The notes below the pieces were generated by a model that saw only the letters and a program-made list of their open reading frames with translations, ran no database searches and was not told the origin of the DNA. This document shows positions 15,707 through 51,222 of a DNA stretch of 64,000 bases, piece after piece (the first letter of the stretch is position 1; every line of letters starts with the position of its first letter). The stretch comes from Candidatus Omnitrophota bacterium. GTDB taxonomy: Bacteria > Omnitrophota > Omnitrophia > Omnitrophales > Aquincolibacteriaceae. The stretch is from NCBI GenBank assembly GCA_041674705.1, contig JBAYVF010000006.1, forward strand, positions 23,241-87,240, given 5' to 3'. The position numbers and the translations under genes were made by a program.

Positions 15707-15757
15707 GAAGGATGGAGGAGGGTGAAAAGTCAGGCACCATCCGCCATCCGTCTTCCG
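15707..15757. repeat. palindromic element, GGATGG family
   Basis: gaaggatggaggagggtg - loop - caccatccgccatccgtcttc. It shares stem words with 51145-51222 and 28565-28650. Confidence 0.7.
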
Positions 15758-15846
15758 CAATCCTGTTTTACGTGGAGGGATGGCAGAGTCATTCGCGGTT
15801 TCGCGGCGAATGACTTCGAGGAGTAAAGCGACGAGAGGTCTTCAGA

Positions 15847-16110
15847 ATGGAACAACGTTGGTCTCTTTATATTCTTGAGTGTCGCACGAAAGATTTGTAT
15901 GTGGGCATTGCTCAGGATGTGCAGAAAAGACTGGAGTTGCACAATAAGGGGCGTGCATGCCGGTACACTAAATTTCGAGGACCTGTGACGTTAGTTCATG
16001 AAGAATACTGCGGTGGTTACGCTGAAGCACGAAGACGGGAAAGAGAAGTCAAAAAGTTTTCTAGGATCAAGAAGTTAGCTTTAAGAGACCTCTCGTCACC
16101 AAAGACGTGA
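15847..16110 (+). CDS. GIY-YIG nuclease family protein (UPF0213-like, 87 aa)
   Basis: WSLYILECRTKDLYVGIAQDVQKRLELHNKG...YTKFRGPVTLVHEE.....A.RRERE.K pattern. Confidence 0.8.
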   Translation: MEQRWSLYILECRTKDLYVGIAQDVQKRLELHNKGRACRYTKFRGPVTLVHEEYCGGYAEARRREREVKKFSRIKKLALRDLSSPKT

Positions 16111-16144
16111 CTCGAGGTCCCAAAAATTATAAAACAAATTTTTG

Positions 16145-16230
16145 GGAGGGATGGCAGAGTGGTCGAATGCGGCGGTCTCGCCACCGCCTGCGAAGCGGCG
16201 GGGTCCCGCCTCTTTTTAGGCGGGAAAAAC
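16145..16230 (+). pseudogene. tRNA-Ser-like 5' fragment followed by a hairpin (non-functional tRNA remnant)
   Basis: The first ~36 nt (GGAGGGATGGCAGAGTGGTCGAATGCGGCGGTCTCG) are near-identical to the tRNA-Ser(CGA) 115 nt downstream. There is no 7-nt anticodon loop, T-arm or 3' acceptor. It ends in cccgcc-tcttttta-ggcggg. Confidence 0.5.
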
Positions 16231-16259
16231 TAGCATTTTTTGATCGGCCGTTCGTTTAG

Positions 16260-16346
16260 GGAGAGGTGGCAGAGTGGTCGAATGCGGCAGTCTCGAAAAC
16301 TGTTAATCGCGCAAGCGGTTCGGGAGTTCGAATCTCCCCCTCTCCG
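16260..16346 (+). tRNA. tRNA-Ser(CGA)
   Basis: Hand-folded cloverleaf: acceptor GGAGAGG/CCTCTCC, anticodon arm GCAGT-CTCGAAA-ACTGT, long variable arm, T-arm GGGAG-TTCGAAT-CTCCC. No encoded CCA. Confidence 0.9.
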
Positions 16347-16383
16347 TTTTGCTATGATTTTTAAATAAAAAAAGGAATAGAAA

Positions 16384-18078
16384 TTGGAATATCTGATCTT
16401 CGCCAGGAAATTCAGGCCGCAGACGTTTGAAGAGATCGTGGGGCAGGAGACCATCACCACGACCTTGAAGAACGCCATCCGCCAGGAACGCGTTCCGCAA
16501 AGCTTTCTTTTTTCCGGGCCTCGAGGTGTGGGAAAAACCTCAACCGCGCGTATTCTCGCCAAGGCTCTGAATTGTAAAGAAGGTCCTACCGAAAAACCCT
16601 GTGGCAAATGTATTTCCTGTAAAGAGATCGAGCAGGGGAATTCCATGGATGTGCTCGAAGTGGACGGTGCGTCGAACCGCGGCATTGAAGAGATCCGAAC
16701 ACTTCGCGAGAATGTAAAATTCAAACCTTCTTCGGGCCGCTACAAGATCTACATCATTGACGAAGTCCATTCCTTGACCGGCGATGCTTTTAATGCCCTC
16801 TTAAAGACCCTCGAAGAGCCGCCGGCGCATGTGAAATTTATTTTCGCCACGACGGAAGCCCACAAGGTGCCTCTCACGATCCTGTCGCGCTGTCAGCGGC
16901 TTCAATTCAAAAGGATCTCGGTCCCTGAAGCGGTTGAAAAACTTGAGAAGATCGCGCAGAAAGAAAAACTGAAGTGCGAGAAGAACGTGCTTTTCATGAT
17001 CGCGAAGGCTACGGAAGGCGCGCTTCGCGACGCGGAAAGTCTTTTAGACCAACTGGCGAGTTTTTCCGAAGGGAAGATCAAAGAAGAAGACGTCTTAACG
17101 CTTCTCGGTCTTGCGCCGGAAGCGATGTATGTTTCGGTTCTTGTGGCGATCCGCGAGAAAAAAGGGGATGAGATCTTTGGTCTCGTGAAAAAGCTTTATG
17201 AGGAAGGCGCCGACCTCGCGCAATTCGCGAAGGGGCTCTTCGAAGTTTTCCGTCATCTCTTGGTCTTGAAGACCGCGGTCAAAGCGGAGGCGTTGATCGA
17301 AGCGAGCTCCGACATGATCGTGAAGTTGAAGAAGCTGACGACCGATTTCCCGCAGGGCGAGTTGCTTTTGGCTCTTTCAATCCTTCAAAACTTGCAGATC
17401 CAGCTGCGCCGTCCGGTGGCCTCGCCCAAACTGCTCCTGGAGGCCGCGCTCCTCAAGCTTGTTTATATGGATGGCATGAAATCCGTCGACAGTCTTATCC
17501 AGAACGCTTCTTTAGCGTCGAGGGGGAGTTCCGCAGCTCCGGCCATGGAAAAAAAAACACTAAAACCGGTCACGGCCGCTAGCAGAGTTGAAATTCCTCA
17601 AAAGGGGACAGGCACCGTTTCTTCGGGGACTGGCTCCTTTTCCGCAGGAAAAGGTGCCTGCCCCCCTCAAAAAGAAACGGAGCCTGTCCCCCCAGAAGGC
17701 CTGACGCTCAATGATGTCGAAAAGGTATGGCCTCAAGTGATCGAGCTTGTAAAAGCCAAGCGCATGTCCTTGAGTCTTTATCTTGCCGAAGCCGAGCCGG
17801 CAGAAGTAGAAGGTTCGGTGATCGTCCTGGGGCTTCCCTCCGAATTCCGTTTTCATAAAGAGACGCTCGAAAAAGATCTGAACAAGCAGGTTATCGAAGA
17901 CGCGTTCGCGCAAGCCTTGGCTGTCAAGGTCCGGGTCCAATGTGTTGTGACCGAACGCGACGGGACGACTCAGGAAGCGGCCGAGGAAAGAGCCTCGGCT
18001 CAAGACGAAGGCGTGCCTGATATTGTTTCAAAGGCCCTTGAAATTTTCGACGGTTCCAAAGTTATCCGCAAAGATTGA
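16384..18078 (+). CDS. dnaX: DNA polymerase III subunit gamma/tau
   Basis: TTG start. FRPQTFEEIVGQ, P-loop GPRGVGKTSTARILAK, Zn module CGKCISC, DEVH. 564 aa. Confidence 0.9.
   Translation: MEYLIFARKFRPQTFEEIVGQETITTTLKNAIRQERVPQSFLFSGPRGVGKTSTARILAKALNCKEGPTEKPCGKCISCKEIEQGNSMDVLEVDGASNRGIEEIRTLRENVKFKPSSGRYKIYIIDEVHSLTGDAFNALLKTLEEPPAHVKFIFATTEAHKVPLTILSRCQRLQFKRISVPEAVEKLEKIAQKEKLKCEKNVLFMIAKATEGALRDAESLLDQLASFSEGKIKEEDVLTLLGLAPEAMYVSVLVAIREKKGDEIFGLVKKLYEEGADLAQFAKGLFEVFRHLLVLKTAVKAEALIEASSDMIVKLKKLTTDFPQGELLLALSILQNLQIQLRRPVASPKLLLEAALLKLVYMDGMKSVDSLIQNASLASRGSSAAPAMEKKTLKPVTAASRVEIPQKGTGTVSSGTGSFSAGKGACPPQKETEPVPPEGLTLNDVEKVWPQVIELVKAKRMSLSLYLAEAEPAEVEGSVIVLGLPSEFRFHKETLEKDLNKQVIEDAFAQALAVKVRVQCVVTERDGTTQEAAEERASAQDEGVPDIVSKALEIFDGSKVIRKD
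17549..17557 (+). promoter_or_regulatory. A9 slippery run in dnaX (candidate recoding / transcriptional slippage site)
   Basis: GAA AAA AAA ACA at codons 389-392. The -1 frame stops at 17580-17582 and the +1 frame stops at 17561-17563. Confidence 0.45.
17604..17691. repeat. 88-nt imperfect palindrome inside dnaX coding sequence (in frame)
   Basis: ggggacaggcaccgtttctt..ggactggctccttttcc / ggaaaaggtgcctgcccc..aagaaacggagcctgtcccc. Encodes GTGTVSSGTGSFSAGKGACPPQKETEPVP in the tau linker. Confidence 0.75.
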
Positions 18079-18096
18079 TCCATCGGGAGCCCAGCC

Positions 18097-18696
18097 ATGA
18101 AAGCCTATTCGGAAATAATGACGAGATTGGTTGAGGCGCTCTCCAAACTCCCAGGTATCGGCCGGCGTTCGGCCGAGCGCATGGTTTTCCACCTCCTGAA
18201 AACAAAAAAAGAAGATGCGCTCACGCTCGGAGAGCTCATCAAGCAGCTTCGCGAGAGCGTGGTGTTTTGCAGCGTTTGCCATAATTTCTCGGATCAAAAA
18301 CTTTGCCATGTTTGTTCGGACCCGGGCCGCGATCAGGGGCTTATTTGCGTCGTCGAAGATCCCAAGGACGTTGTGGCGATCGAAAAGACCGGAAGCCATC
18401 GCGGGGTCTATCACGTACTGCTGGGGGCGCTATCGCCGCTGGACGGGATCGGGCCGGATCAGATCTGCATTCAGGATCTTCTGGAACGCGTGAAGCAGAA
18501 AAAAGTCCGGGAAGTCATTCTCGCGACCAACCCCAACACCGAAGGCGATACGACCGCGCTTTATCTCGCGAAAGTTTTGACACCTTCCAAAGTCAAAGTG
18601 ACGCGCCTGGCGCGCGGCATCCCGGTCGGCAGTTATATTGAATACACGGACCAGGCCACGCTCGCCCGCGCTTTTTCAGGCAGACATCTCGCATGA
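18097..18696 (+). CDS. recR: recombination protein RecR
   Basis: LPGIGRRSAERM helix-hairpin-helix, Zn finger CSVCHNFSDQKLCHVC, Toprim VVEDPKD...ATNPNTEGD. Confidence 0.95.
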   Translation: MKAYSEIMTRLVEALSKLPGIGRRSAERMVFHLLKTKKEDALTLGELIKQLRESVVFCSVCHNFSDQKLCHVCSDPGRDQGLICVVEDPKDVVAIEKTGSHRGVYHVLLGALSPLDGIGPDQICIQDLLERVKQKKVREVILATNPNTEGDTTALYLAKVLTPSKVKVTRLARGIPVGSYIEYTDQATLARAFSGRHLA

Positions 18697-19502
18697 TCTC
18701 TTCTTTTAAGGGGATGACGGCGCTTGTCACCGGTGCTTCTTCCGGGATCGGCAAGGCCCTGGCGCGCGAACTCGCGGGACAAGGCGCGAACCTGATCCTC
18801 GTCTCGCGTAATGCCCAACGCCTGGAACAAGAAGCAGAAGATCTCAGGATCCGTTTTGGTGTGAACGTCCATGTTTTCCCTGAGGATCTGGAGCGTTTGG
18901 AAGAGCGGCTGGAGCTTTTTGCATGGATCCAGAAGATGGGTCTCATCGTGGACGTTCTTGTGAATAATGCCGGTCTTGCGCATTACGGTCCGTTCGGAGA
19001 AACAAATTTTGAGGATACGGCAGCAATGCTGGACCTGAACATTCACGCGCTCACGCATTTGACGAGGCTTTTTCTCCCAGGAATGCTTGAAAGAAAAACA
19101 GGTGGAGTTTTGAATGTGGCTTCCACCGCCGGCTTTCAACCCCTTCCTTATCTTTCGGTGTATGCGGCGACCAAGGCTTTTGTGCTCAATTTTTCCGAGG
19201 CGTTAGGGGAAGAATGCCGAGGCCGTGGCGTTCGCGTTTTTTGCCTCTGTCCGGGGAATACACTCACACGTTTTCATCAGACCGCCGGGATCGATAAGAA
19301 AAGAATGTTCTTCAGCGCTTCAGCCTCGGATGTCGCGCGTTTTGCGCTCAGGAAATTTTTGAAGACGAACCAGCCTTCGGCGATCTTTGGTTTTTGGAAT
19401 AAACTCATGATCTATGCGGAGAGATTAAGCCCGAGACGGCTGACCGTGTTCGTGACGGGGATGATGTATCGATCGAACGGGACCGGAGACCCGAGACCAT
19501 AG
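18693..19502 (+). CDS. SDR family oxidoreductase
   Basis: TGASSGIGKALA and the YAATKAF catalytic motif. ATGA overlap with recR. Confidence 0.85.
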   Translation: MISSFKGMTALVTGASSGIGKALARELAGQGANLILVSRNAQRLEQEAEDLRIRFGVNVHVFPEDLERLEERLELFAWIQKMGLIVDVLVNNAGLAHYGPFGETNFEDTAAMLDLNIHALTHLTRLFLPGMLERKTGGVLNVASTAGFQPLPYLSVYAATKAFVLNFSEALGEECRGRGVRVFCLCPGNTLTRFHQTAGIDKKRMFFSASASDVARFALRKFLKTNQPSAIFGFWNKLMIYAERLSPRRLTVFVTGMMYRSNGTGDPRP

Positions 19503-19556
19503 ACCAACGCACCACGTTTTAAAGTCTCTGGTCTCTCGTCTCAAGTCTTCGGTCTG
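19480..19556. repeat. word-repeat palindrome (GAGACC words) spanning the SDR stop codon
   Basis: ggaccggagacccgagaccatagacc ... gtctctggtctctcgtctcaagtcttcggtctg. The left arm encodes the last residues GTGDPRP. Confidence 0.6.
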
Positions 19557-19576
19557 TGCTGTTAAGCTAAAGAGAG

Positions 19577-19605
19577 TTGCTAGCGCCGCTTTTCTTGATT
19601 AGAAT
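19577..19605 (+). promoter_or_regulatory. candidate promoter for tRNA-Gly (TTGCTA-17-TAGAAT)
   Basis: Spacing is 17 nt. The -10 ends 25 nt before the mature tRNA 5' end. Confidence 0.4.
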
Positions 19606-19630
19606 GACTTCCGTTTCGCGCATCAAACAC

Positions 19631-19701
19631 GCGGGCATAGCATAATGGTAATGTCCTAGCCTTCCAAGCTAGTCATGCGGGTTCGATTCCCGCTGCCCGC
19701 T
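19631..19701 (+). tRNA. tRNA-Gly(TCC)
   Basis: Hand-folded: acceptor GCGGGCA/TGCCCGC, anticodon arm CTAGC-CTTCCAA-GCTAG, T-arm GCGGG-TTCGATT-CCCGC. Confidence 0.9.
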
Positions 19702-19891: not shown

Positions 19892-20791
19892 ATGCGAATG
19901 ATTCAAAAAATTTTATTCCTCGTCGAATACGCCATCTTCAGGGCCCTGGCATTTCTTCTCCGTCTCATTCCTCTTCGAATAAGTTACAAAACGGCTGATG
20001 TCTTGGGGGTGTTCGTTGTCCGGATCCTGGGGATTCGGCGTGAGACCATGCTGAAAAATCTTCGCCTGGCATTCGGGAAGGAAAAGGATGAAGCCGAACT
20101 TCTCCGGATCGCCGAGGAGTCGATGGCGAACCTCGGCAAACTCGTTTTCGAATTCATCCGAACACCGGAAGCTTCCGCCTACCCCGAGCGGTATATGGAA
20201 CCGCCAGACGTATCGCCGCTGATGGAAGCTGTGAAGAAAAAAGGCGGTTTTATCGCGATTGTTTCGCATTTCGGAAATTGGGAGTGGTTGGCAATTCCCA
20301 TCCAAAAAGACGGCCTTCATGTGCATGCCGTGGGCCGTCCCCTCAAAAATCCTTATCTTTACCGTTATGTCCGGGAAATTCGCGAAGCGGCGAACCTGAC
20401 CAATATCGAAAAGTCAGGCGCGGTGCGGTCCTCTCTCGAGGTGCTTAAAGAGCGGGGGATTCTGGCGGTGCTGATCGATCAACATGAAAGCCGGGGATCG
20501 ATGTGGGTGAATTTTTTTGGCCGCAAAGCCGCGACGAGCACTTTGCCGGCAATGCTTGCCCTTAAATATGAATATCCGGTGCTTCCCGCGTTCTTTTATC
20601 GCGATGAGAGCGGTTGCTCGAAAATTAAATACGGACCACTTTTCCCCCTGATCCGGACCGGAGATCTTCAAGCTGATTTATTGGCTAATACCCAGCAGTA
20701 TGTAACTAAGATCGAGGAAGAGATCCGAAAACGGCCCGGCGACTGGCTTTGGGCCCATCGGAGATGGCGCGCCCCGGAAGTAAAGGTTTAA
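19892..20791 (+). CDS. lysophospholipid/lipid A biosynthesis acyltransferase (LpxL/HtrB family)
   Basis: N-terminal TM, SHFGNWEW acyltransferase motif, LIDQH block. ATG 19892 is preferred because the track start 19748 lies in a hairpin array. Confidence 0.7.
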   Translation: MRMIQKILFLVEYAIFRALAFLLRLIPLRISYKTADVLGVFVVRILGIRRETMLKNLRLAFGKEKDEAELLRIAEESMANLGKLVFEFIRTPEASAYPERYMEPPDVSPLMEAVKKKGGFIAIVSHFGNWEWLAIPIQKDGLHVHAVGRPLKNPYLYRYVREIREAANLTNIEKSGAVRSSLEVLKERGILAVLIDQHESRGSMWVNFFGRKAATSTLPAMLALKYEYPVLPAFFYRDESGCSKIKYGPLFPLIRTGDLQADLLANTQQYVTKIEEEIRKRPGDWLWAHRRWRAPEVKV

Positions 20792-23700
20792 GCAGCGGAG
20801 GAGATGACGACGTAATTCTGGACCAAGGCTTCGACGAAAGCACGAACCTCGGAACGAAAACGTCCGGTCTGGTCATAAAGAAAGCCGTTCTTCATTTGCA
20901 GGTCTTCAGGCCGATTGACAAGTAGCGCCAGAACGATGCCATCCATGCCGTCTAGGGCAAAACATTCTTGAAGATGTGGAACAATCCTCGGCTCCGCCCT
21001 GCCTAATCTTGCTTTGAATGCTCCTACCGTATCTCGTTCCATATCCGAGAAACCAAAGACCGGGATCTTTCCAGACCTCGCCATTTCAGGCAACCGGATA
21101 TCAACGGTAGCAACCGACCGTAACGCCACCACGCGATTACTATATTGTCCGTGAACAACATCCGGGATCACTAGTCGGATCTCCGAACGTCTTGTCCCCG
21201 CCAAGCAAAGAAGTTTTTTAAAATCCGTCGCCGTCATTAAATCTATCGTCGTCTGCTCAATTACAAGCACCGCCTTGTTCATGATAGGCGCTATCGGTTG
21301 AACTCTCGCCTCAGAACGAACCGGTGCGTCTTTGGCCATCGCCGCGTCTCCACTCGCTACCGCCTGATCAGTCATAGTTTCCGAATAAATACCATAAACC
21401 ATCTCGAGTTGAGCCAAACCAGTCTGAAGCCCCTTCTTATATGCCATGAGCGTTAGCAACGCATCCGCTCGATCAATAGGATTCGCTCTAAGACGATTTT
21501 CAAGACCGCCAACATCCTGTGCTTGAAGCCACCGAATATCATCGATGCCTTTTTTAATCTCAACCAACACTTCCTTTATTAATGAGACAACGTCCGTACG
21601 CGACATTTTCTTCCAATCCTGTCTATATTGATTGTCAAAAGGAATCTTTTTTGAAAAAATATCACGCTGAATGCCTTGATTCCGCTTATTAATCATTTCA
21701 AGTCGATTGTTAATTTCGGCTATTTCAGCCACCTCTTCTTCCTGTAAATAGACCTCCGCTGAACTCCATAATCCGAGGGCCTGACGAAGCGTATAATTTA
21801 ATTTGTCGCCGAATAAAAGAGTTAGCGCCTCGGCCATCTGATATAAATGTTCATCGGACAGCTCCCCACGTTTAAGCGTTAAGGCAGCTTTACGCAACAG
21901 AGAACCCGCCATCAAAAATCTCTCCGCTCCTTGCCCTCGATAAAAGGCGGATTCCCGCTCAAGGAACTCATCAATCGTCAGCTTCCCTTCGCGGAAAGAC
22001 TGTTCGCTCTGATCAGGTTCTTTGCCTGTTGTCACATGGAATCGTAAAAGAGTCCCTTCTGTCGTCAATGCAGCAAGGCGCGTCTGCGTCTCCGCCTCGG
22101 AGATACCCAGGAGACTGGCCACTTCTTCTACCTTGAATCCACCGACGATGCTATTGATGGGATAATGGGAAAGACTCGCCACCGCAGCATCTTCGCTCCG
22201 CATCTCGGAGCGGACCGTTATGTCTTTAGCCATCGCGCGGTCGGCCTCGGCCGCCTTCATCTCCCTGCCGTCCGCCGTGAAAATCTCTTTCTCTTCGCCT
22301 GTATCGGGGATACGGGGAAATTCAACGGGGGCGGTCATCAAATCAGGCCCATGCCCCAGCCAGGACAAACTCATTTTACCGTCAGACAATATCTTGACGC
22401 TTCGGATCTTCGTTGGCTCTTTCTTGTCCGTGTAAGGATTAACGAATAATATTTTCACGCCTGACGGAAGTTTGATGAGCGTGCGCTGCACGCCAAAGAT
22501 ATCTTCGTTCTCGGCCAATACTTCTCCTTTGGCGCTCAATCCATCGAGGAGCTGCATCCATTCTTGCCGTGAAAAGGCATGGCTTTTCGTGAACTCAGAC
22601 ACGCTGTCGATCGTCTCATAACTGGCCGTGGGGTACATCGGGGTAAGTTTTATCACATCAATTTTATTGCTGAAACTTTCAGCAAACCTTTCGAGATCTG
22701 AAACATTGTCGATCCCGCTCTTGAACGCGATCAAATTAACTCTCAAAGTCTTGCCCCTGGACATTAGAAAACGATTGATCTCCTCTATTTCCCCTATCGT
22801 GAGCGTCGATGTTTCCATAATGGCGTCATTTCGTTTCTTGTCATAATGATGATAGGAGATATTAACCGATGTGATCGAGGAATTCCCGACAAGCTCCAGA
22901 ATATTTTTATCTCTCAAGGGCGTTCCGTTCGTCGTAACAGTGACCTCGTCTAATTGATCCTTGACCTTATCCAATTCCCCCAACACTTCTCCTAAATGCC
23001 GTGCGAGCAAAGGTTCCCCCCCCAGCAACACGACATCTTTCACATGATAAGCGCTCATGGCTTTGCTAAGCTTTTGTGGAAAATTACGCGCCACAGCCTC
23101 ACCGCTATGTTGCGACCCTGTTTTATTAATACAAAAAGCGCAGTTACCGTTACAGAGGTCGGTCATGACAATACTCAGACTGGTTTCATCGGCTATCTGA
23201 TAGAGGCCCTCGCCGATACGAACAGGAGTCAAAGAATCATCCATTAAACGCATTTCTCGAATGTAAGGCACACTGCTTTTTGTTTGGTTGTGCCCAGGGG
23301 CCTCCGCCGCGTCGGGAGGCATCTGATCTGAAATGGGAGAAAGAGGGCTCTGTTCCCAATTTTCCTGACTTTCTATTCGAGGTAAATCTGTAAACTTATT
23401 ATCGGGTCTCGGGCCTTGCTCTATTAAATCCACACTATCTAACCCCAGGCCGTCCACCCGAGCAAATTCTTTAGAGCTATCAATACTCGAAAGCATTTCT
23501 GCACCTCTAGGATTTTTGTCATTTGGCTCCTTCTCAGCGGCAGGTTCTTGTTTCAACCGCATTTCGGAGCGCTTGTCTAGAGCGGTTCGATTTGGCTTAT
23601 TCCGTTGCGAGTCTCTAAGGCTACGCGCCTTTCCCGGCCGAATGGCAACCCATAAATCGGAGGTTTCAATAAACCGGCGCCTCAAGAACTCAACATCACA

Positions 23701-26700
23701 ACCAAGCCCTAAAAACATGTGCGAAAGACGGGCTAATAGAGAAAAACCTTCCTGATTAGGGAAATGGCACCCTTTTTCTGAATAATAATAACTTAAATAA
23801 TGGTTCAAAATCAGCCACTGCGGCGTCACTTCCGCCATCAAGCAGATCCAATCTCGTAAAACCCTCCCTTCGGATACAAGTCTCTTCAAAACCGACAGAC
23901 CCTTCTCGGCACGCCGCCATGCCTTGACCGCAACAGAAGCGGGCAACCGATCACTGTGATCAAAAATTTCAGCCACCTCTTTCAGGGGAAGAATTTCGCC
24001 CAAAAACATGTCGTCCAAGGCATGATTGCCAACCACTAGATGCGGGTTACGCGGCAAAGATTCCATTCCTTCCCGTAAAGTCTTTTGGATGGAAACAACT
24101 TTCACTCCGGGGACAAGTCTTTGATAGGAATCCACAGCTTTTTTGATCACTTTCGCAGGTTCAAGAACATAAACGGTACCAAGAAAACCGTATTTTTTGA
24201 GCCCCCACGCAATTTGTGAACCCGAACCCGGCGCTACTTCGACAACAACCCCATCTTTAGGCAACTGAATTTTTTTAAAAATATCTTGCCAAATAAGGCC
24301 CATGAACTGGTCCCATGTCATTCGCGCTGGGTCAAATTGACTCAAATCAAAGGACATGCCAGGGGATCCCGCCTTGCCATTCGTATCCATGGATGAAACT
24401 TGTCGCATTTGTTGTAATCGCTCAAGGCCTTTTATAACCGAAGGGTCGTCTTTCATAAAAGGAGCAAAAACAGGCCGTGAAGGTCCAAGCGATTGTAGTC
24501 TGAATTTTCGGTTCTTGAATAACAATGTCGGAACCAAATTTTCAAGAAGCTTCTGGTTATCGAAAGCAGGGCTGATCACCCACATTTCATCATCGTGCCT
24601 TTCGATCGCACAGTCATATTTTTTCCCGTTCAGCCTTATGGACCAAGATCCTTGTTCTTTTGGCATTTCCTCTTGATCAAAAAAGGCGGTAAAAAACCGG
24701 AAACTGCCGTCCTTAGAAAGCAATTTTCCAGAATAGCCATTAACATAAAGTTCCATGTCGGCAAGATAATAATTATCAAAAATACGGGAAGGAACGCGCC
24801 TACTGGCTTGCACGATCTTATCGATCAACAGCGAAAATCGTTCTGCCTTGATTTTCCTGCCTTGATACATTTCCACGAGATTCTGTTTGATCCGGCGTCC
24901 GAAGAGAGGCGACAAATAGGAACGATCCTCATTCACAATATAGGCCTTCATTTCCGCAGAATCCTCTAAAGGCGCGAAAACCGATCCTCGAATCTTTGCA
25001 AAAAGAGAATCATACGCAAAGATGAAGAACAGTGCCCTTCGACAACAATCTTCAAGCATCCCATCGTCTTGAACCACATACCCGTGCTCTTCGACATAGC
25101 GCTTCATGAAATCCGGAATCGCGTCATTTTCCTTCCGTTCAGTTTCCGCATCGGGATTCAGCAACAGAAAAAACGCTTTTTCAATACTCCATTGAGGACT
25201 TCTTCGGAGAAGCGGGTAATACCGGAAGAAATTAGAAAAATCAAAGACGGCAAGCTCATCATGATCGGGAGCATGAATATCCCATGCATTGTAACGCGGG
25301 AGCATCATGCGTGACAGGGCCTGAAATTCATCGGCTAATATTTTTAGTTCTCTTTCGAACTGCTGGCCTACGGCGTCTTTAAATGGCGTGGACAATCCCA
25401 TGAGATCAAGGAACCTTGTTCGGATCTGCGACGCATAAGCCTCCTCCATGGCGTGTTTTAGATCTTTTAAAGACACCTTGCCGCGATTAACTTCGCTTTG
25501 CGCTAAACCTTCCAAAATCATTAATTGACCGTTCTGCTCTAATCCAAATAAATTGGTTGTATAGAATGTTTTTCCAACGACTTGAGGCGGACGGTGACGG
25601 ACAGAAAGGACCGTGTCATAATCAAGCATACGGCCTTCCACCGAGATATTGCCTGCCGACCATGCTCCGTGAAAGATCCTTTCAATAAACTTTTCAGCCT
25701 CCCCTTTTCCAAACATGGTTGCCACACGAAGCATTCTTTTTTTGTTAAGTGGCTCGTTTTTTTTAAATAAATGCGTCGGACGATCCAAGCTTCCATCATC
25801 CATACGAACTAAGAGAGCCGCTGCTTCCCTGGATCCCGGCCACGAAGGATTATCAAAAGTCTTTACCGCATCAATGATCCCGAGTACCGGCGCCGTACCA
25901 GTACGGAGGTCGTAGTGCAAGGAATTGGAAACGATGGCTTCCCATACTGCGGTCGGAAGATCAAGAAAGCCGTCCGAATGCCATTTATCTGACTCGTGAC
26001 TCACGAGAGCTGTTTTAACCCCTTTCACATTGAAACGAGAACCTATATAAAAAGCACGTCCTGAACCCAAGTTACCATTCGTCGCGATACCGGTCGGATC
26101 GAATTGATAATCCACAAAAACAGGCAAATACTTTTCAAGCTTAAGCCCATCTGAACCTTGACCGCGTTTAAGCGTGGCCACGGAAAATTGACGTTCTATA
26201 GCGTCCAACATATTTTTTGAATCCGTCCACGGCGGAAGAAACCGGCCCAGCATGGCGCGGTTTCCATAGATGCCCGCCATGGACTCTACCGGATCTTTAT
26301 AAGCAGTTTGTCGGATGAATGACGAACGGCCCAGACGATCCAAGGCCTGAGGTTCCTTACGCATCTCCTGTTCGAGAGAAAGAATCGGCCTTAAGCAAAA
26401 AGCCATCCACGAGTCACTCTCAAAACCCTCAGTTTCAACAATCATTTCGGATTCCAGATCCCTTGTATTTTTAGGCACCGAAGCAGAAATTTGCTCAAAA
26501 AGGTCTTTGGCCCTTCTGAAATCATCAGAAGAAATCCGGTCATTGCGAAGCAGAGCATCACGACTTGCTATGACAAAAGCTGGTGACGCTTTTATAAAAA
26601 AGCTCTTCCAGTCCAGCCCGCGAGAACTATCCTCCGATGACATCCTTGTGAATGCATTGACAATCACCCCATCCACAGGGTTTAAAAAGCCACTCCCTTG

Positions 26701-28887
26701 ATTGAATGCGTCCAGAAGGACAGGAATAATCTTGGCTCCAGGCAAAAGGTGACGGTATCTTTCTAAATTTCGAAGGACCGCTTTATTTCCACCTGTCAGC
26801 ATTAATGTGCCTTTAAATTTCCTGGAGGCTAGCACTTCAGGCACGGATGACGGTTCGGAGGATACAAATTCGATCAAAGATCCTTTTTCCGGAAATTGAT
26901 AACGGTCTAAAAGAAGTTGCCAAATCCGCTGGGCAGCCACACGGCGGTCCTTTTCAGGGATCTTTTCGAGCCTTGAATTTAAAGGAACTTCTTGGTCGTC
27001 GCGCGATTCGCTTCGGCGAGACATTACATTTTTTTTAAGGGAAAGATCCTGGGCATGAACTGATCCCATTTCGTCAATACCAGCAGCTTGCCTTCCATTC
27101 GTTTCCTGCATCTCGAAGCGAGTGGTTCGCTCATGATTTAAATCTCGCATTTCAGCTCTTCCAATCACACGATGGAGCGTTCCAAGATCGGCGTTGCGGT
27201 CTGCATACAGAGCATTGGCTACGGCCAAAACCTCCATGCGGCCTTCAGAGCGAGCAAAAATGCGCTCGGCCGGGACCATGGTTGCAGGGGCCAAAGGTTT
27301 TGTGGCAATTGCCCGCTCGAACGGAAAGTCACCGTCTGTCATAAGCTTTTTATAGAACGCTTCGTGACGAGGGCTGGGCTTGGTGATTCGCGGACTGACG
27401 ACGAGGTAACTGATCCCTTTGACTTCGAGGACGCGTTTGATGTTCTCCTTATGGAATCCTCCATATACCAAAATTGCCGGCTCGATGCCGGGCAATTTCG
27501 AACTCGAAGTTCGAAGCTCGAAGTTCGAAGTTTCGGCATTATCTTTGTTCTTTGCGTTTTGCTCTTTTCCCTTTTCAAGAAAATATTTATCCAACATCTC
27601 CGAAAGTGAATTGTCACGCTGATGGGCGATTTCGTAGAATTTAATCGCATCCTTGATGTTTTGCTCCCACATCCGGGAGAGGATAAGCGTCTTTGGCGAC
27701 TGGCTGAAAATAAACTTAGCGAAGGAATCCGTATCAAATGTTTTAAGGCTGTTTTTGACCGCCTCATATTCTTCTTGGGATACTTGAAGGTCGTTCAGAC
27801 GGTCGAGAAGGCTTAGGATTTTGTAATACTCAAGAAGCTGCTTATCTTCCGCCTTATGCAAGTAAGTTTCCGCGACCGCTTGCTCAAGTTTAATAAGCTC
27901 GCCGAAGATTTCACGGGCATCAATGTGTTTGGCTTTTTCGATGACAGCCGGATCATTCGAGCGAATGGCTTCAAGAATAAAGCTGAAAAGACCGTCAGCG
28001 TGGAGCGCAGAGCGTTTAACGCTTAGCTTTTTGTCGTTTCTGTCCCCTCTACGCTCTACGCTATCCGCTAGTGAAAATGTCCTTCCAAGATAAGTAAAAA
28101 GGTCGAGCTTCTTGGCATCGAACTGTTCCTTGATCTTGAGCCATTCCTTGAGCGCTTTTGGAAACCGGGCATCGGCAAGTGACTTTAATTCCTTTTCGAG
28201 CGCCTTGAGATCTTTGGTGATGACGTCTTTCTTTGCCGCAGAGAGACGGTATTGTCCGATGTTTTCTTTGTGGAGCTTTAGGGAATCAGCGCCAACGAGG
28301 TTGAAATCCTTTGTCCGGTTAATGTGGGCGTATTCCGCACCGCCTACGCGAAGATGGTCCATCAGGAAGTAAGAGACCTTTTCTTTGATCGTGAGGTCTT
28401 TGATGAACCCGAAATAGTTGTCCGTAGGCACCGGGCCTTCATAGCCCTCCTCGAAGACTGTCTTAATGCCGTCATGCGCGACTAGGTGGTTGATGATCTT
28501 GGCGATATTTTCCTGAGCTTCGAGCGAGTCATGGGCGTCTTGCAGAAAGACTATGGTCTTTCTGCCGGATATCGGATGAAGGATGGAGGATGGCGCCAAA
28601 CCTTTGGTTTTCAGTTCTTCGCCATCCGCCATCCGCTGCCCGCCATCCGGGGCAAAATAGACCTCGTCTATTTTGCCAAGTTCGGGAGGGATCCGGATCT
28701 TTACATCACGGACCAGGCGAGAAAGATCCTTGGATGGATCCCCTCCCTGAACATTGGCATTGACTGGTTGGGCGAATGCAGGGGGCACATAGTTGAGAAG
28801 GCCTGTAAACAGAAAAAGCGCCGCTGTGATAATGGCGACGCCTCTTTTGAATGGGTTTCTCCCGAAGGGAGTATTTTGTATTCTCAT
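20788..28887 (-). CDS. giant multidomain protein (2,699 aa): signal/anchor, unknown N-terminal region, SelO-like, methyltransferase-like, radical SAM, unknown C-terminal modules
   Basis: Single uninterrupted ORF. The motifs are quoted in the domain sub-features and findings. The stop overlaps the lpxL-like stop region by 4 nt (convergent genes). Confidence 0.85.
   Translation of the reverse strand: [2699 protein letters not shown]
22500..23190 (-). other. radical SAM core region of giant ORF (approx. aa 1900-2130)
   Basis: [19 protein letters not shown] (CxxxCxxC at 23131-23154), [29 protein letters not shown]. Confidence 0.7.
23730..24390 (-). other. class-I SAM methyltransferase-like Rossmann region of giant ORF (approx. 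aa 1500-1720)
   Basis: [14 protein letters not shown] (motif I-like), GTVYVLEP (acidic end of beta2), [11 protein letters not shown] (motif IV-like). Confidence 0.45.
25000..26400 (-). other. SelO/YdiU-like pseudokinase (AMPylase-fold) region of giant ORF (approx. aa 830-1295)
   Basis: [22 protein letters not shown] aligns with E. coli YdiU [42 protein letters not shown] aligns with [42 protein letters not shown] aligns with [21 protein letters not shown]. Confidence 0.6.
27485..27539. repeat. palindromic word-repeat (CGAAGTT words) in frame inside giant ORF
   Basis: atgccgggcaatttcgaactcgaagttcgaagctcgaagttcgaagtttcggcat. Encodes ..[18 protein letters not shown].. Confidence 0.65.
27998..28062. 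repeat. palindromic word-repeat (CTACGC words) in frame inside giant ORF
   Basis: gcgtggagcgcagagcg - 27 nt - cctctacgctctacgct (14/17 complementary by hand). Encodes ..[21 protein letters not shown].. Confidence 0.55.
28565..28650. repeat. GGATGG-family palindromic element in frame inside giant ORF
   Basis: ccggatatcggatgaaggatggaggatggcg - cctttggtttt.. - cgccatccgccatccgctgcccgccatccgg. Encodes ..[29 protein letters not shown].. Confidence 0.7.
28771..28887 (-). other. signal-peptide-like / N-terminal anchor segment of giant ORF (aa 1-39)
   Basis: [16 protein letters not shown] (basic), [15 protein letters not shown] (hydrophobic), then [10 protein letters not shown] (AxA-type site). Confidence 0.6.
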
Positions 28888-37734: not shown

Positions 37735-37787
37735 AAAAGGGGGCAGGCTACTTTTCCAATAAAGTGGCCTGCCCCTTTTAATTTTTT
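37735..37787 (+). terminator. intrinsic terminator after pnp
   Basis: aaaagggggcaggc-tacttttccaataaagtg-gcctgcccctttt followed by a T-rich tract. Confidence 0.7.
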
Positions 37788-38246: not shown

Positions 38247-38354
38247 ACCGTAGCGGACAGCGTTAAGCGCTAAGCGTTCAGGATTGCCAAAAAATAAATC
38301 CGTTCATTATTAATATTCTTTACGCTGTTCGCTTAACACCTATCTCTAGGATTT

Positions 38355-44721: not shown

Positions 44722-44739
44722 GAATGCCCCTTGTCGCAG

Positions 44740-47096: not shown

Positions 47097-47121
47097 TAGG
47101 AAAAGGACCTTTTTAAATGCG

Positions 47122-47189: not shown

Positions 47190-47190
47190 A

Positions 47191-47274: not shown

Positions 47275-47300
47275 GACGACTCCTTTGGGTTGAATTGCGG

Positions 47301-47573: not shown

Positions 47574-47643
47574 AAAAGTCTCCTTGAAAGGTGATTGACA
47601 AAAGGAATTGTACCATAAAGTACTCGTCGCGCACTGAGCGGAC

Positions 47644-50199
47644 TTAATATCCGTATTTCTTTACGTACCAGGACTTGATCTTTTGCGTCAGGGTCAGATA
47701 GGCGAGGACGATCACAAGGACCGAGAAACCGTAACCCCAGGTCGGCGGAACAAAGCCGAAGAATTTTCCCCAAGGGGAAAGCGTGACGGCAAAAGCGGTT
47801 CCGACGATACAAAGCGACATTTGGACCAGGAACCGGCTAGGGCGGCTTTCGAGGAACGGTATCTTGGCGGTTCGGATGATATAAATAATAAAGGTTTGAG
47901 TGCAGAGCGACTCCAGGAACCAGCCGGTATGGAAAAATTCCTGCGAGGCATGGAAAACAAAAAGCAAGATCCCGAAAGTCAAAAAATCAAAGAGGGAACT
48001 GATCGGGCCAAAGATGAGCATGAACCGGCGGATCGCGGCGATATCCCAACCTTTGGGAGTTTTCAGATATTCATCATCCACCTTATCGGTCGGGATGGCG
48101 ATCTGGGAGACGTCGTAAAGAAAATTATTGAACAAGATCTGGATCGGAAGCATCGGAAGAAAGGGAAGGAAAAGGCTCGCGCCGGTCATGCTGATCATAT
48201 TCCCGAAATTAGAACTCGAACCCATCTTGATGTATTTCATGATGTTCCCGAAGGTTCTGCGACCTTCCAACACGCCGTCCTCAAGGACCAGGAGGCTTTT
48301 TTCAAGCAGGATAATGTCCGCGGATTCTTTGGCGATATCGACGGCGTTATTGACAGAAATGCCGACGTCCGAGGTTTTAAGGGCCGGCGCGTCGTTGATG
48401 CCGTCTCCCAAGTATCCGACGATCTGCCCGTTCTCATGAAGCGCATGAATAACACGTTCCTTCTGAAGCGGGGAGAGGCGTGCGAAGACGGTGGTTTTTT
48501 TGACCAGTTCCCGGAGCGTGATATCGCTGGCGGCCTCCAGCGTATCACCCGTGACGATCTCGTGGACATCCAACCCGACATGGCTGCAGATCTTTTTGGT
48601 GACTAGTTCGTTGTCGCCAGTCAGCACTTTGAATTCGATGCCAAGATTTTTCAGGCGATGGATCGTTTCCTTGGCGCTGGGTTTCGGCGGGTCAAGGAAC
48701 GCGAGGTAGCCGATCAGGACGAGGTTCTTTTCATCGTCCTTGCTGTAAACGCTTTTTTTCTCCGGCATGTTTTTATAGGCCACGGCCAGGACCCGGAAGC
48801 CGTCGGCGCTCAAAGAGTCGTATTCTTCCTTAAGATCGGAAAGGATCAAATTTTCCATTTCCAGGATCTCGCCGTCGAGTTCGTAATGACTGCAGCGTTT
48901 AAAGATCTCTTCGGGGGCGCCTTTGGAAATAAGCGTTTGTTTTCCCTCGGCTTCAACAATGACCGACATGATCCTGCGCGAAAAATCGAACGGGATCTCA
49001 TCCTCTTTTTTATATTGTTCGGTCAGCACCAGTTCGTGCTTCAGGATCGCGCGGTCGAGCAAGTTCTTGAGGCCGGTCTGATAGAAACTGTTGATGAAGG
49101 CGTATTTGAGGACCTCTTCGTTTTCAGCCCGGACCACGTCGCAGTGACGTTCGAGCACGACATCATCCAGCGTGAGGGTGCCGGTCTTGTCCGTACAGAT
49201 CACGTTCATGGCGCCCAGGTTCTGGATCGAATTGAGACGCTTTACGATCACCTTTTTTTTGGACATAGCGATCGCTCCTTTGGAGAGATTGATCGTCACG
49301 AGCATCGGCAGCATTTCTGGCGTCAAGCCGACGGCGACGGCAAGAGAAAAAAGCAAAGCCGTTTTCCAATCGCCTTTGGTGAACAGATTGATCACAAAGA
49401 TCGCCGCGACCATGACCATCATGACTTTGATCATAAGCCAAACGAAACGATTCACCCCTTTGTCGAAACTGGTTTGCGTGCGGATATTCGCCAAGCGCCT
49501 CGAAACTTCTCCAAATTGAGTGTCGATGCCGGTTTTAATCACCAGGCCCAGAGCTGTGCCGCTCACCACGCTGGATCCCATGAACGCGATATTGGTCAGG
49601 CTGGTGACGGAAAGGCCTTGGGTGTTGATCGGGGCCGCGATTTTTTCAATGGGGAAGGATTCTCCTGTCAGGGAGGACTGATTGATGAACAGGTCTTTAC
49701 AGGAAAGGATGCGGAGGTCGGCAGGGATCATGTCGCCTGCGTAAAGGTCCACGATATCGCCCGGGACGATCTCTCGCATTTTGATCTCGGTTGGTTTTCC
49801 ATCCCGGTTCACGGTGGCGGTGGCGCGTACGAGTTCGCTCAGCTTTTCGGCCTCTTTATTGGACTTGTATTCCTGGAAAAAGGACAAAAAAACGCTGAGG
49901 AAGATCATGAGCAGGACCAGCAACGCCTGGATATCTTCTCCGAAGCAGAGAGAAAATGTGGCGATGACCAAAAGGATGATAACGAGCGGATCCGTAAATT
50001 TCTGGAGAAGCTGCCACAACGCGGTCCGCTTCTTTTTTTTGGCCGGTTCGTTGTAACCGTGTTTTTCAATGCGTAAAGCGGCTTCCTCTTCGGAGAGGCC
50101 TCCCCACGAGGTCATGAATTCTTTGAGGAGCTCCTCGGCGGTTGCCGCGCTAAAAAAAGAAACCGGCTTTTGATTTTTGGGATTCTGAGGATTTGGCAT
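47644..50199 (-). CDS. mgtA: magnesium-translocating P-type ATPase
   Basis: ICTDKTGTLT, TGDN, GDGINDAPALK. 851 aa with MgtA-like N-terminus and TM layout. Confidence 0.85.
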   Translation of the reverse strand: MPNPQNPKNQKPVSFFSAATAEELLKEFMTSWGGLSEEEAALRIEKHGYNEPAKKKKRTALWQLLQKFTDPLVIILLVIATFSLCFGEDIQALLVLLMIFLSVFLSFFQEYKSNKEAEKLSELVRATATVNRDGKPTEIKMREIVPGDIVDLYAGDMIPADLRILSCKDLFINQSSLTGESFPIEKIAAPINTQGLSVTSLTNIAFMGSSVVSGTALGLVIKTGIDTQFGEVSRRLANIRTQTSFDKGVNRFVWLMIKVMMVMVAAIFVINLFTKGDWKTALLFSLAVAVGLTPEMLPMLVTINLSKGAIAMSKKKVIVKRLNSIQNLGAMNVICTDKTGTLTLDDVVLERHCDVVRAENEEVLKYAFINSFYQTGLKNLLDRAILKHELVLTEQYKKEDEIPFDFSRRIMSVIVEAEGKQTLISKGAPEEIFKRCSHYELDGEILEMENLILSDLKEEYDSLSADGFRVLAVAYKNMPEKKSVYSKDDEKNLVLIGYLAFLDPPKPSAKETIHRLKNLGIEFKVLTGDNELVTKKICSHVGLDVHEIVTGDTLEAASDITLRELVKKTTVFARLSPLQKERVIHALHENGQIVGYLGDGINDAPALKTSDVGISVNNAVDIAKESADIILLEKSLLVLEDGVLEGRRTFGNIMKYIKMGSSSNFGNMISMTGASLFLPFLPMLPIQILFNNFLYDVSQIAIPTDKVDDEYLKTPKGWDIAAIRRFMLIFGPISSLFDFLTFGILLFVFHASQEFFHTGWFLESLCTQTFIIYIIRTAKIPFLESRPSRFLVQMSLCIVGTAFAVTLSPWGKFFGFVPPTWGYGFSVLVIVLAYLTLTQKIKSWYVKKYGY

Positions 50200-50207
50200 G
50201 AGGAAGT

Positions 50208-51089
50208 CTAACTCATTAAAATATTAATCACAATCCCCGCGGTAAGGCTTACGAGAACGAGGAGGCCCATGATGAAAGCGGTTTCTTTGCGGTCCTTGTT
50301 CTCTTGAAAAAGGACCAGTATCCCCAGGCCGCCGCTCGCTGAAAGGCCCGCAATGGCCGAACCGAAGGTGATGGCGCCTTTCAAATAAACCTCGGTGATC
50401 GCGACGGAGGCAGCGCAATTCGGGATAAGCCCGACCAGAGTCGCGATCAAGGGCTGGAAAAAAGTTCCCGAGAAAAAGACGCGCTCCAGGCCCGCTTCTC
50501 CAAATTTCGCGACCACAAAGCCGATCGCCAGAGAAACCGCAAAAATAAAAAACAGAACCTTCAGGGTGTGCTTAAGCGGAAAAAGGAAAAAAGTTTTCCA
50601 GCGGGGGATCCCCTGGCCGTGTGTGTGGCAATCGCAGGATCGGTACCCTCCCTCGGGAACAATGGGGGCGTGCGGAACATGCGGCTCCCCAGAGGAATTT
50701 CTTTTAAAGATAAGATCGACCGCGTATCCGGCGATCGTCGCAAGAACCACCTTTGTGAGTAAAAGACTAAGAACCAAGGGGGCTGCGTTGTGTTGGGCGA
50801 GAATCACCGGGATCGCTTCATCCGAAGTTGAAATAAAAACGGCGAGCAGCGTTCCTCGCGAAATACACCGGCGGGTATAAAGCGTGGCGGCGACCACCGA
50901 GAAACCGCATTGAGGTATACAGCCTAAAAGCGCACCCAAAAAAGGCGCCACGCCCATTTTGTGGCTGATCTTTTCTCCGAGGAAAGATTCCGACTTGTTC
51001 TCAAGAAACTCGAGCGCGATATAAATGCCCAAAAGAAGCGGCAGCATCCCCATCGTGTCTTTGAGTGTTTCCATCAAGATTTGATTCAT
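50208..51089 (-). CDS. polytopic membrane permease, possibly a metal-ion exporter family
   Basis: About 10 TM helices. GCIPQCGFS and TSDEAIPV motifs, two homologous halves. The family assignment is from memory only. Confidence 0.35.
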   Translation of the reverse strand: MNQILMETLKDTMGMLPLLLGIYIALEFLENKSESFLGEKISHKMGVAPFLGALLGCIPQCGFSVVAATLYTRRCISRGTLLAVFISTSDEAIPVILAQHNAAPLVLSLLLTKVVLATIAGYAVDLIFKRNSSGEPHVPHAPIVPEGGYRSCDCHTHGQGIPRWKTFFLFPLKHTLKVLFFIFAVSLAIGFVVAKFGEAGLERVFFSGTFFQPLIATLVGLIPNCAASVAITEVYLKGAITFGSAIAGLSASGGLGILVLFQENKDRKETAFIMGLLVLVSLTAGIVINILMS

Positions 51090-51144
51090 GAATGAGGATA
51101 GTACTTTGGAATATTGGCAAAATCAACAATCCAGAATTATTTGA

Positions 51145-51222
51145 CTGGATGGAGGAGGGCGGACGGAGAATGGTGTTTGGTTTTGGCGTCGCCCGCCATC
51201 CACCATCCGTCTCCCGTTTTTT
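51145..51222. repeat. palindromic element, GGATGG family, followed by T6
   Basis: ggatggaggagggcgg (51147-51162) pairs with ccgccatccaccatcc (51193-51208), 14/16. The loop contains gtttggtttt, as in the intragenic copy at 28565-28650. Confidence 0.7.

Follow-up and report, generated by a model that had tools for sequence, protein, structure and literature searches.

What are the three hairpins built from GGATGG- and CCATCC-type repeats that lie dispersed in a 64,000-nucleotide stretch of a Candidatus Omnitrophota genome (contig JBAYVF010000006.1; the whole stretch is called the window here), two of them between genes and the third in frame inside a giant open reading frame (ORF)? Judged by comparison of their sequences with those of other genomes, they are true copies of a palindromic repeat family of about 75-85 bases that is common to Omnitrophota bacteria. 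The original prediction had placed stems of GGATGG and CCATCC units at three loci, and the stems are present as claimed: at two or fewer mismatches the window contains 12 matches to CCATCCRCCATCC (2.8 are expected and none of 100 shuffles reaches 12), 9 of which fall inside the three elements.

Copy W1: 15695..15765, plus strand; full-length nhmmer match, E 5e-13
Copy W2: 28565..28650, plus strand; inverted repeat, nhmmer E 1e-17; in frame in the giant ORF, which is on the opposite strand
Copy W3: 51145..51219, plus strand; nhmmer E 8e-12

Architecture and kinship of the GGATGG elements

The element consists of two arms of three to five degenerate tandem heptamers, (GGATGGA)n on the left and (CCATCCG)n on the right, which enclose an A-rich loop of about 15-35 nucleotides, often CG(T/C)(A/C)AAACC...TTCG, its total length being about 70-90 nucleotides. 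The number of units per arm varies from 3 to approximately 6 among the copies, and both arms of one copy may differ in it. Because GGATGG is followed by A on the left and CCATCC by G on the right, every seventh position is an A·G mismatch, and the folded strand is thus a series of 6-bp helices parted by A·G (or C·U) mismatches.

W1, with the arms (GGGTGAA)(GGATGGA)(GGAGGGT) and (CCATCCG)(CCATCCG)(TCTTCCG) and the loop GAAAAGTCAGGCA, is intergenic and lies 51 nucleotides past the stop codon of a CHASE2-GGDEF gene (13871..15643) and 81 nucleotides before a GIY-YIG ORF. Four units make up each arm of W2 (GGATATC GGATGAA GGATGGA GGATGGC on the left and CCATCCG CCATCCG CTGCCCG CCATCCG on the right) and its loop is CGCCAAACCTTTGGTTTTCAGTTCTTCG. 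W3 (GGATGGA GGAGGGC GGACGGA GAATGGT and GCCCGCC ATCCACC ATCCGTC TCCCG, then TTTTTT) is situated between the divergent genes 50208..51089 (minus strand, ArsP_2-like) and 51588..52121 (plus strand), 55 nucleotides upstream of the start codon of the former. The loops of W2 (28565-28650) and W3 (51145-51222) had been described as similar, and the string TTTGGTTTT was indeed found in both.

It had also been proposed that the three elements are homologous rather than convergent, a view that full-length comparisons with other genomes confirm. One genome per species was scanned with the pattern GGATGGNGGA, 15-45 nucleotides and CCATCCRCCATCC, which listed at least 116 loci, the source genome not among them, and a metagenome scan with a stricter two-arm pattern gave four contigs with further copies. 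An nhmmer profile made from 15 copies of other genomes and metagenomes, none from the window, recovers exactly W2, W1 and W3 in the window, in this order and all full-length; the next-best match has an E value of 0.02 (13755..13826, a hairpin of GTACGGC units), and nothing but the three falls below 0.01.

Copies are present in the Omnitrophota metagenome-assembled genomes (MAGs) JAZDFE01, JAZDJU01, CAIJHQ01, MHFU01 and JAHQRI01, as well as in the unclassified CAYZYT01. The Omnitrophota copies match those of the window in the asymmetry of the arms and in the A-rich start of the loop, CG(T/C)(A/C)AAACC, and they often end the loop on the right with GTTCTTCG, as the window copies do. W2 and L027b, a copy in the valyl-tRNA synthetase (ValRS) gene of another Omnitrophota MAG, are identical at 67 of 79 positions (85%), the irregular outer units GGATATC-GGAKGAA included, and the match takes in the right half of the loop. 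Similarly, 65 of 80 positions are identical between W2 and L121, and 62 of 78 (79%) between W3 and L027a, the second copy in the L027 MAG, including their common CTCCCGTT(A)TTTT tail; within the window, W1 and W2 agree at 57 of 71. Whole-element homology at non-homologous loci, within and between genomes and at 80-85% identity over the full length, is an observation. The likeness reaches well past the repeated unit, which makes the loci homologous members of a single family, with subtypes common to several genomes. Several copies on one contig occur elsewhere, too (three in L061, two each in L027 and L026).

Among the loci listed, hairpins with GGATGGY arms extend beyond Omnitrophota (L004-L119) to Planctomycetota, Acidobacteriota, Gemmatimonadota, Verrucomicrobiota, Chitinophagaceae, some Gammaproteobacteria and others, with several fetched copies per genome in the Gemmataceae MAG SMAG_U11579, an Acidobacteria gp7 AA8 MAG, and MAGs of Planctomycetota and Chitinophagaceae. 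The Gemmataceae and Acidobacteria copies that were inspected have perfectly complementary arms and genome-specific loops. As about 1,200 classes of unit are possible and there are 185,000 genomes, the spread across phyla is compatible with independent origins, and we do not claim that the GGATGG unit is special. A Thermoguttaceae/Planctomycetota subtype, cggattttGGATGGYGGA...CCATCCGCCATCC, is conserved between MAGs.

The giant gene and in-frame copies

The copy in coding DNA offers the possibility to compare a filled site with empty ones. The features involved are as follows:

W2 host gene: 20788..28887, minus strand; ORF of 2699 residues with a signal-peptide-like N-terminus, an N-terminal domain of an Omnitrophota family and a radical-SAM domain at residues 1906-2024
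W2 insertion proper: 28564..28644, minus strand; 81 nucleotides (27 codons), a gap in the orthologue L003 (pairwise DNA alignment)

As had been predicted from the ORF, the copy at 28565-28650 is read near the N-terminus of the giant protein, as PDGGQRMADGEELKTKGLAPSSILHPISG, residues 80-108. Homologues of the first 436 residues all come from uncultured bacteria, the named ones being Candidatus Omnitrophica/Omnitrophota. The 79 N-terminal residues, including the signal-peptide-like segment, are conserved in P0001, P0003 and P0010; P0003 (78% identity in the homologue alignment) and P0010, two close relatives, have the same MRIQNTPFG... N-terminus without the W2 segment, which is also missing from eight more distant homologues. 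Of 14 aligned homologues, 10 lack any residues between the ELGxIEE and KTIxYIQDAHDSLEAQENIAKII blocks, and 4 carry other, unrelated inserts there, so the site is an indel hot spot. At the DNA level, the L003 orthologue has 82% identical flanks and an 81-nucleotide gap exactly over the hairpin. The conserved N-terminus and this gap together imply that the ORF start is genuine, that the element is translated and that W2 is an insertion. Conservation of the W2 segment at the protein level, which would have pointed the other way, was looked for among the homologues and is not seen. New copies thus arise by insertion, the element being present or absent as a whole at the orthologous site.

No target-site duplication is visible when the filled site of W2 is compared with the empty one of L003, where the diverged flanks leave the ends of the insertion uncertain by a few bases, such that a duplication of 2-3 nucleotides could escape notice. 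Directly adjoining W2 in the coding sequence is a perfect 12-bp palindrome with a loop of 3 nucleotides (GGCAAAATAGAC ctc GTCTATTTTGCC, 28651..28677), which encodes GKIDEVYFA and whose position in the L003 orthologue is non-palindromic; it may have been left behind by hairpin-templated repair where the element inserted. In an AlphaFold model of the N-terminal domain, which is poor (mean pLDDT 52), residues 82-107 appear as a low-confidence coil between strands 75-79 and 110-114. A homologue of this domain from another metagenome, L001, carries an (ACGGAAT)4/(ATCCGTT)4 hairpin at the exact protein site of W2, and has four in-frame inserts in all (472-555, 778-945, 1402-1521 and 1651-1758), with ACGGAAT, ACGGATA and GGATCAC heptamers.

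The giant ORF fuses its N-terminal domain to the radical-SAM domain and long unannotated stretches, whereas in relatives the N-terminal domain is a separate protein of 330-720 residues; on the P0001 contig the next gene encodes a protein of 3839 residues. Two further segments of the giant ORF are repeat-derived, a self-complementary (TCGAAGY)4 array at 27504-27533 encoding ETSNFELRTSSS and a hairpin of ACGCTCT units at 27997-28063 encoding SLADSVERRGDRNDKKLSV; both are in the N-terminal domain, at positions at which homologues have indels or other inserts.

W2 is not the only copy inside a gene. L027b is inside ValRS, and in the alignment with the Thermus enzyme (1gax) a gap of 22 residues coincides exactly with the element peptide ADIGGRMEDGVKPGSSPSAIRHPSF; the copy L031 in UvrD corresponds to about 20 residues that are extra relative to PcrA (1pjr). 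Additional in-frame copies are found in L083 (a 2666-codon ORF, open across the whole 8-kb locus), L095 (a 907-residue ORF) and L061, where the host is a 738-residue ORF homologous to the N-terminal domain of the giant protein of the window, and the copy of L064 forms the C-terminal tail of a shikimate dehydrogenase. Altogether, at least 6 of the approximately 24 family copies are intragenic and in frame, and both orientations are found with respect to the host gene. Copies therefore adjoin genes and also sit in frame inside them, essential genes included, and the in-frame copies are tolerated. The claim that the elements insert both into coding DNA and into terminator-like positions stands with respect to coding DNA; as to the second part, only W1 is at the 3' end of a gene (51 nucleotides after the stop codon), and W3, its T-run notwithstanding, lies between divergent genes.

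Since three heptamers equal seven codons, any frame of an arm yields cyclic permutations of DGGWRMA and PS(A/S)I(R/L)HP, and the encoded peptides are therefore alike. The GGATGGN unit is free of stop codons on both strands, but half of all heptamers are likewise stop-free as arrays, so this property is permissive and not explanatory. A peptide search with a synthetic consensus (DGGWRMA...PSAIRHP) recovered only hypothetical ORFs of 27-76 residues, which are miscalled copies from intergenic DNA, and none of the long host proteins. Many of the public gene calls P0042-P0114 are "hypothetical proteins" of this size that are translated GGATGG-type hairpins, i.e., an annotation artefact. In practical terms, the elements are miscalled as spurious small ORFs and add non-homologous segments to alignments of conserved proteins.

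In the dnaX gene of the window (16384..18078), a nested palindrome at 17604-17691 (-60.7 kcal/mol) is in frame in the tau linker and encodes KGTGTVSSGTGSFSAGKGACPPQKETEPVP; its outer arms, GGGGACAGGCACCGTTTCTT and AAGAAACGGAGCCTGTCCCC, are 95% complementary, and the inner hairpin is formed by GGGGACTGGCTCCTTTTCC and GGAAAAGGTGCCTGCCCCC. It is probably a representative of another in-frame palindromic element family of a non-heptamer type.

Origin and spread of the element

The GGATGG elements are, in our view, probably a short non-autonomous palindromic dispersed repeat common to Omnitrophota that is copied whole in trans and is primarily selfish or neutral DNA rather than a dedicated regulatory RNA. 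A trans-acting activity that recognises the hairpin formed by single-stranded DNA would copy the element as a unit, and the length of the arms may then drift through 7-nucleotide slippage, a process that has also been proposed to explain the heptamer repeats of bacteria (cited in PMC4679880). Selection would leave coding insertions of 3n length in permissive variable loops, where they may survive purifying selection thanks to the stop-free GGATGGN unit, a length divisible by three and the tolerance of such loops for additional residues. The intergenic copies would be transcribed as stable hairpins and may incidentally stabilise 3' ends or, in the case of the T-tailed subtype (W3), terminate transcription, an effect that is likely secondary.

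Several observations weigh against such copying in trans. No transposase, and no Y1_Tnp domain in particular, was found among the 49 ORFs of the window or among 20 ORFs that contain or adjoin copies elsewhere, which fits a non-autonomous element but provides no mobilising enzyme, and no excision footprint or target-site signature of the elements was found. Only three copies are present within about 72 kb of the source genome: the ENA contig k141_1120147 (ERZ27247358), which is 99.985% identical to the window over 13.6 kb (L125, window 1-13572), adds 7.7 kb of sequence without a further GGATGG copy. The loops of W1-W3 differ considerably, so none of the three is a recent copy of another. The hairpin of another heptamer in L001 at the very site of W2 could mean a local hairpin-generating process and not independent insertions, and GGATGGY arms in many unrelated phyla imply that such arms can arise repeatedly. 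It is comparative presence and absence, together with the dispersed homologous copies, that speak for mobility. The orientation of the elements relative to local GC skew, in which a strand bias of the IS200/IS605 type would be reflected, is uninformative (9 concordant and 6 discordant loci). A gene of L061 flanked by two copies was considered as a RAYT candidate and rejected, as it encodes a SRPBCC-type protein.

Could the hairpins have formed in situ instead, through slippage and intrastrand template switching, with only the 7-nucleotide unit being alike and nothing copied between loci? Heptamers are the most abundant long simple-sequence repeats in many bacteria, and polymerase slippage has been suggested to generate them (Mrazek et al. 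2007, summarised in PMC4679880; PMC4692102); the GGGAATC arrays of Xanthomonas often occur as inverted pairs (PMC4692102). The variable number of units, the different heptamer hairpins at one protein site in different lineages, the GGATGGY hairpins across many phyla and the perfect 12-bp palindrome next to W2 that is missing from L003 favour local formation as well. A purely local origin, however, cannot account for 79-85% full-length identity between unrelated loci, which agree in irregular outer units, A/G spacer asymmetry, loop motifs and 3' tail; the full-length recovery of W1-W3 by a profile from other genomes and the all-or-none difference between 82%-identical orthologues at W2 also speak against it, and we consider this explanation improbable. 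A selected cis-regulatory RNA, i.e., a Rho-independent terminator, an mRNA 3'-stabiliser or an RNase site whose occurrence in coding DNA is an accident, appears quite unlikely to us, too. It would be in accord with the position of most hairpins of heptamer-arm architecture in the window, which start within 8 nucleotides of a stop codon, with the T-run that ends W3 and its homologue L027a, and with the terminator- or stabiliser-type effects that REP elements have in enterobacteria. As had been suggested in the original prediction, folding energies were compared with shuffled controls, and each copy is more stable than its dinucleotide shuffles: -27.8 kcal/mol for W1 (15700-15765, z -3.0), -42.8 on the plus strand (z -2.9) and -49.1 on the minus strand, which is the sense strand (z -4.9), for W2 (28560-28655), and -34.7 (z -2.2) and -34.4 (z -4.5) on the plus and minus strands for W3 (51140-51225). 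An alignment of 18 copies (A2) gives a clear consensus, and RNAalifold recovers the stem from it with every seventh column unpaired. Most pairs are invariant, though, and no compensatory covariation was found among the 18 copies (covariation term +0.32); GGAGGG variants face unchanged CCATCC. This argues against a dedicated structured RNA, because a hairpin without covariation is inherited as sequence and not kept by compensatory evolution, and it fits shared descent better than a selected RNA fold. Furthermore, neither intergenic copy has the makings of an intrinsic terminator (W1 lacks an adjacent U-tract, and W3 has one but no co-oriented upstream gene to terminate), W2 is in coding sequence, the copies inside genes are in both orientations, and hairpins of the heptamer type lie within operons (pabB-pabC-like, purH-folC-like and atpG-atpD), where termination would be harmful. 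At the gathering threshold, an Rfam scan of the window finds four tRNAs only, and no family fits the elements. The organism does employ canonical terminators of a different look, as seen from the strong bidirectional one after pnp (37736-37779), in which an A-run precedes a GC-rich stem of 19 bp (17 of 19 positions paired) and a T-run follows it.

Unlikely as well, if somewhat less so, is the view that the elements are genuine REPs or REPINs and owe their mobility to a RAYT (an IS200/IS605-like Y1 transposase) whose gene is located elsewhere in the genome. The resemblance is considerable: the elements are short, imperfect, GC-rich palindromes that form hairpins as single-stranded DNA or RNA, they hug stop codons and lie between the cistrons of operons, there are several distinct families per genome and no evident target duplication, and the regular mismatches of the hairpin are such as Y1 transposases require (PMC3116915). 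REPs are extragenic by definition and are defined by their association with RAYTs, however, whereas GGATGG copies, in addition to being found near the 3' ends of genes, are often intragenic, no RAYT or Y1_Tnp domain is seen among the 49 window ORFs and the 20 ORFs at other loci, and the arms are tandem heptamers rather than a single conserved 16-20-mer. The intragenic copies and the lack of a RAYT among these ORFs set the family apart from the REP class in the strict sense. Finally, the impression of an in-frame insertion could be an artefact if the giant gene started downstream of W2, leaving it untranslated, or if the window were mis-assembled; the ORF call is the longest possible one and none of the independent assemblies retrieved covers W2, L125 spanning positions 1-13572 only. 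We find this hardly credible given that residues 1-79 and the segment downstream of W2 are conserved in one frame in P0001, P0003 and P0010, that the N-terminus resembles a signal peptide, and that independent assemblies have homologous elements in frame in ValRS and UvrD.

The closest functional counterparts of the GGATGG elements are the Rickettsia palindromic elements (RPEs), families of palindromic repeats nearly half of which are inserted in frame in unrelated genes (PMC10969869). Both are dispersed palindromes of several families that occur in frame in unrelated housekeeping genes and add a conserved peptide there, in the case of RPEs at fold-compatible sites, and a transposase is known for neither (PMC10969869). 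Homologous dispersed copies at non-homologous loci and in-frame copies absent from homologues, which characterise this class, are both found here. RPEs differ in being about 100-150 bp long, in not consisting of tandem heptamers and in being confined to Rickettsia, an obligate intracellular alphaproteobacterium; the Omnitrophota elements have 70-90 nucleotides and periodic 6-bp helices. The likeness is meant as one of functional class, not of sequence family.

The arms, on the other hand, recall heptamer simple-sequence repeats (GGGAATC of Xanthomonas, STRR/GGGGAYT of cyanobacteria and TAACTGA of Beggiatoaceae), which are likewise made of tandem 7-nucleotide units and are enriched intergenically (PMC4692102, PMC4679880). 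In Xanthomonas, 70-75 cases of convergent inverted heptamer pairs are able to form stem-loops (PMC4692102), and tandem 7-nucleotide arms in inverted orientation are what the GGATGG elements have. The units are different, however, and those repeats were described as in-situ simple-sequence repeats or G-quadruplex formers of up to 14 units and not as whole-element dispersed copies with conserved loops. Coding-region repeats were set aside from the transcript analysis in the Xanthomonas study (PMC4692102) and some in-ORF repeat sets are tabulated in the Beggiatoaceae study (PMC4679880); in neither paper is the in-frame insertion of whole elements into conserved genes described. The MITEs of bacteria (miniature inverted-repeat transposable elements), such as Correia/NEMIS, ERIC, RUP, BOX and SPRITE, are also short and non-autonomous and sometimes create in-frame fusions or terminators (PMC10969869), but they have terminal inverted repeats that match insertion sequences (ISs) and target-site duplications, neither of which is visible in the Omnitrophota elements. 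A classical MITE was therefore rejected: although the whole element is palindromic, neither a duplicated target nor terminal repeats of the kind that match an IS transposase were seen. CRISPR-like repeats were rejected on sequence and context. The attC sites of integrons are imperfect palindromes located behind ORFs; they are recognised in the form of folded single strands and contain core boxes of 7 bp, features that the present elements resemble in part. This reading was discarded, as there is no GTTRRRY/RYYYAAC core, cassette array or integrase, and the neighbours are core housekeeping genes.

The elements match RPEs in behaviour, REPs and REPINs in placement and hairpin nature, and the Xanthomonas heptamer pairs in the build of the arms. 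In the literature library that was searched, no description of such elements in Omnitrophota came up, and the text of a 2026 survey of complete genomes of this phylum uses none of the terms palindrome, hairpin, heptamer, tandem repeat, MITE or inverted repeat. That palindromic selfish DNA colonises proteins in frame is a textbook oddity known from little else than Rickettsia, and it is now seen in a phylum that is unrelated and uncultured. The element type is made distinctive and easily searchable by its tandem heptamer arms and their periodic mismatches, which offers a handle on how hairpin repeats spread without an obvious transposase and has a bearing on the over-representation of heptamer repeats in bacteria. 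A question that also arises is whether the insertions have a part in the unusual length of Omnitrophota proteins. A broader view, which we regard as tentative at best, is that heptamer-periodic hairpins make up a mobile class in Omnitrophota and perhaps in the wider PVC group, Acidobacteriota and Gemmatimonadota, with several unit families per genome that are found phylum-wide, hairpin-specific spread and routine in-frame colonisation of genes, essential ones (ValRS, UvrD, DnaX) included. Were this true, such a class would be the counterpart of Rickettsia RPEs in free-living bacteria and would keep adding to the length of proteins in a phylum that is known for giant genes.

Other tandem-unit hairpins and the surroundings of the elements

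The elements had been proposed to constitute "a second RPE-like family". The likeness to RPEs is upheld by the in-frame copies in ValRS, UvrD and three long ORFs; the word "second" falls short, as the GGATGG family is one of at least six families of hairpins with arms of tandem 7-8-nucleotide units in the window. The hairpins of the other families, whose arms comprise 3-4 tandem units, are the following:

GTACGGC family, copy 1, (GTACGGC)3/(GTACGCC)3: 7438..7512; folding energy (dG) -42.5; between purH and a folC-like gene, directly after the stop codon
GTACGGC family, copy 2: 13755..13826; overlaps the stop codon of the class II ribonucleotide reductase gene
GTACGGC family, copy 3: 59293..59368; dG -41.3; intergenic, upstream of 59438..60193
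GGGGAAC-unit hairpin: 2136..2190; 8 nucleotides after the stop codon of a tRNA-binding-domain gene
CAAAGTCA-type (AAGTCAC) hairpin, units of about 8 nucleotides: 4982..5033; inside an operon, between a chorismate-binding (pabB/trpE-like) gene and a class IV aminotransferase gene
CAAAGTCA-type (AAGTCAC) hairpin, units of about 8 nucleotides: 54305..54373; between atpG and atpD, inside the ATP synthase operon
(GAGACCN)4/(GGTCTCN)4 hairpin: 19471..19555; overlaps the end of a short-chain dehydrogenase gene
TAAGCGY-unit hairpin: 38252..38333; 5 nucleotides after the dUTPase stop codon

Seven hairpins of other units overlap a stop codon or begin no more than 8 nucleotides from one, and three lie between seemingly co-transcribed genes (pabB-like/aminotransferase, purH/folC-like and atpG/atpD), a REP-like placement. 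A reverse-complement partner within 90 nucleotides accompanies 11 of the 21 direct runs of period 7 in the window; for periods 5, 6, 8 and 9 the counts are 4 of 43, 2 of 32, 0 of 2 and 0 of 2, respectively. Some of the units recur in the Omnitrophota loci that were fetched for their GGATGG copies, namely GGGGAAC in L023 and L078, GTACGGC in L023, GGTCTC in L031, and CCACGCT in L023 and L095, which means that the phylum has a common repertoire of unit families.

The window as a whole is a housekeeping region that comprises purH, the class II ribonucleotide reductase gene, dnaX, recR, nusA-infB-rbfA-truB-ribF, pnp, ftsK, the atp operon and tuf. The GIY-YIG nuclease-domain ORF downstream of W1 (15847-16110, 87 residues, Pfam E 6e-13) begins 81 nucleotides from the element. 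Among the other fetched loci, tblastn detects a homologue near an element in L023 only, at a distance of about 1 kb, and the association is for that reason probably a coincidence. Four tRNA genes are present, those for tRNA-Ser (CGA, 16260-16346), tRNA-Gly (TCC, 19631-19701), tRNA-Thr (GGT, 60505-60577) and tRNA-Trp (CCA, 62229-62302), the tRNA-Gly gene being located about 75 nucleotides beyond the GAGACC hairpin.

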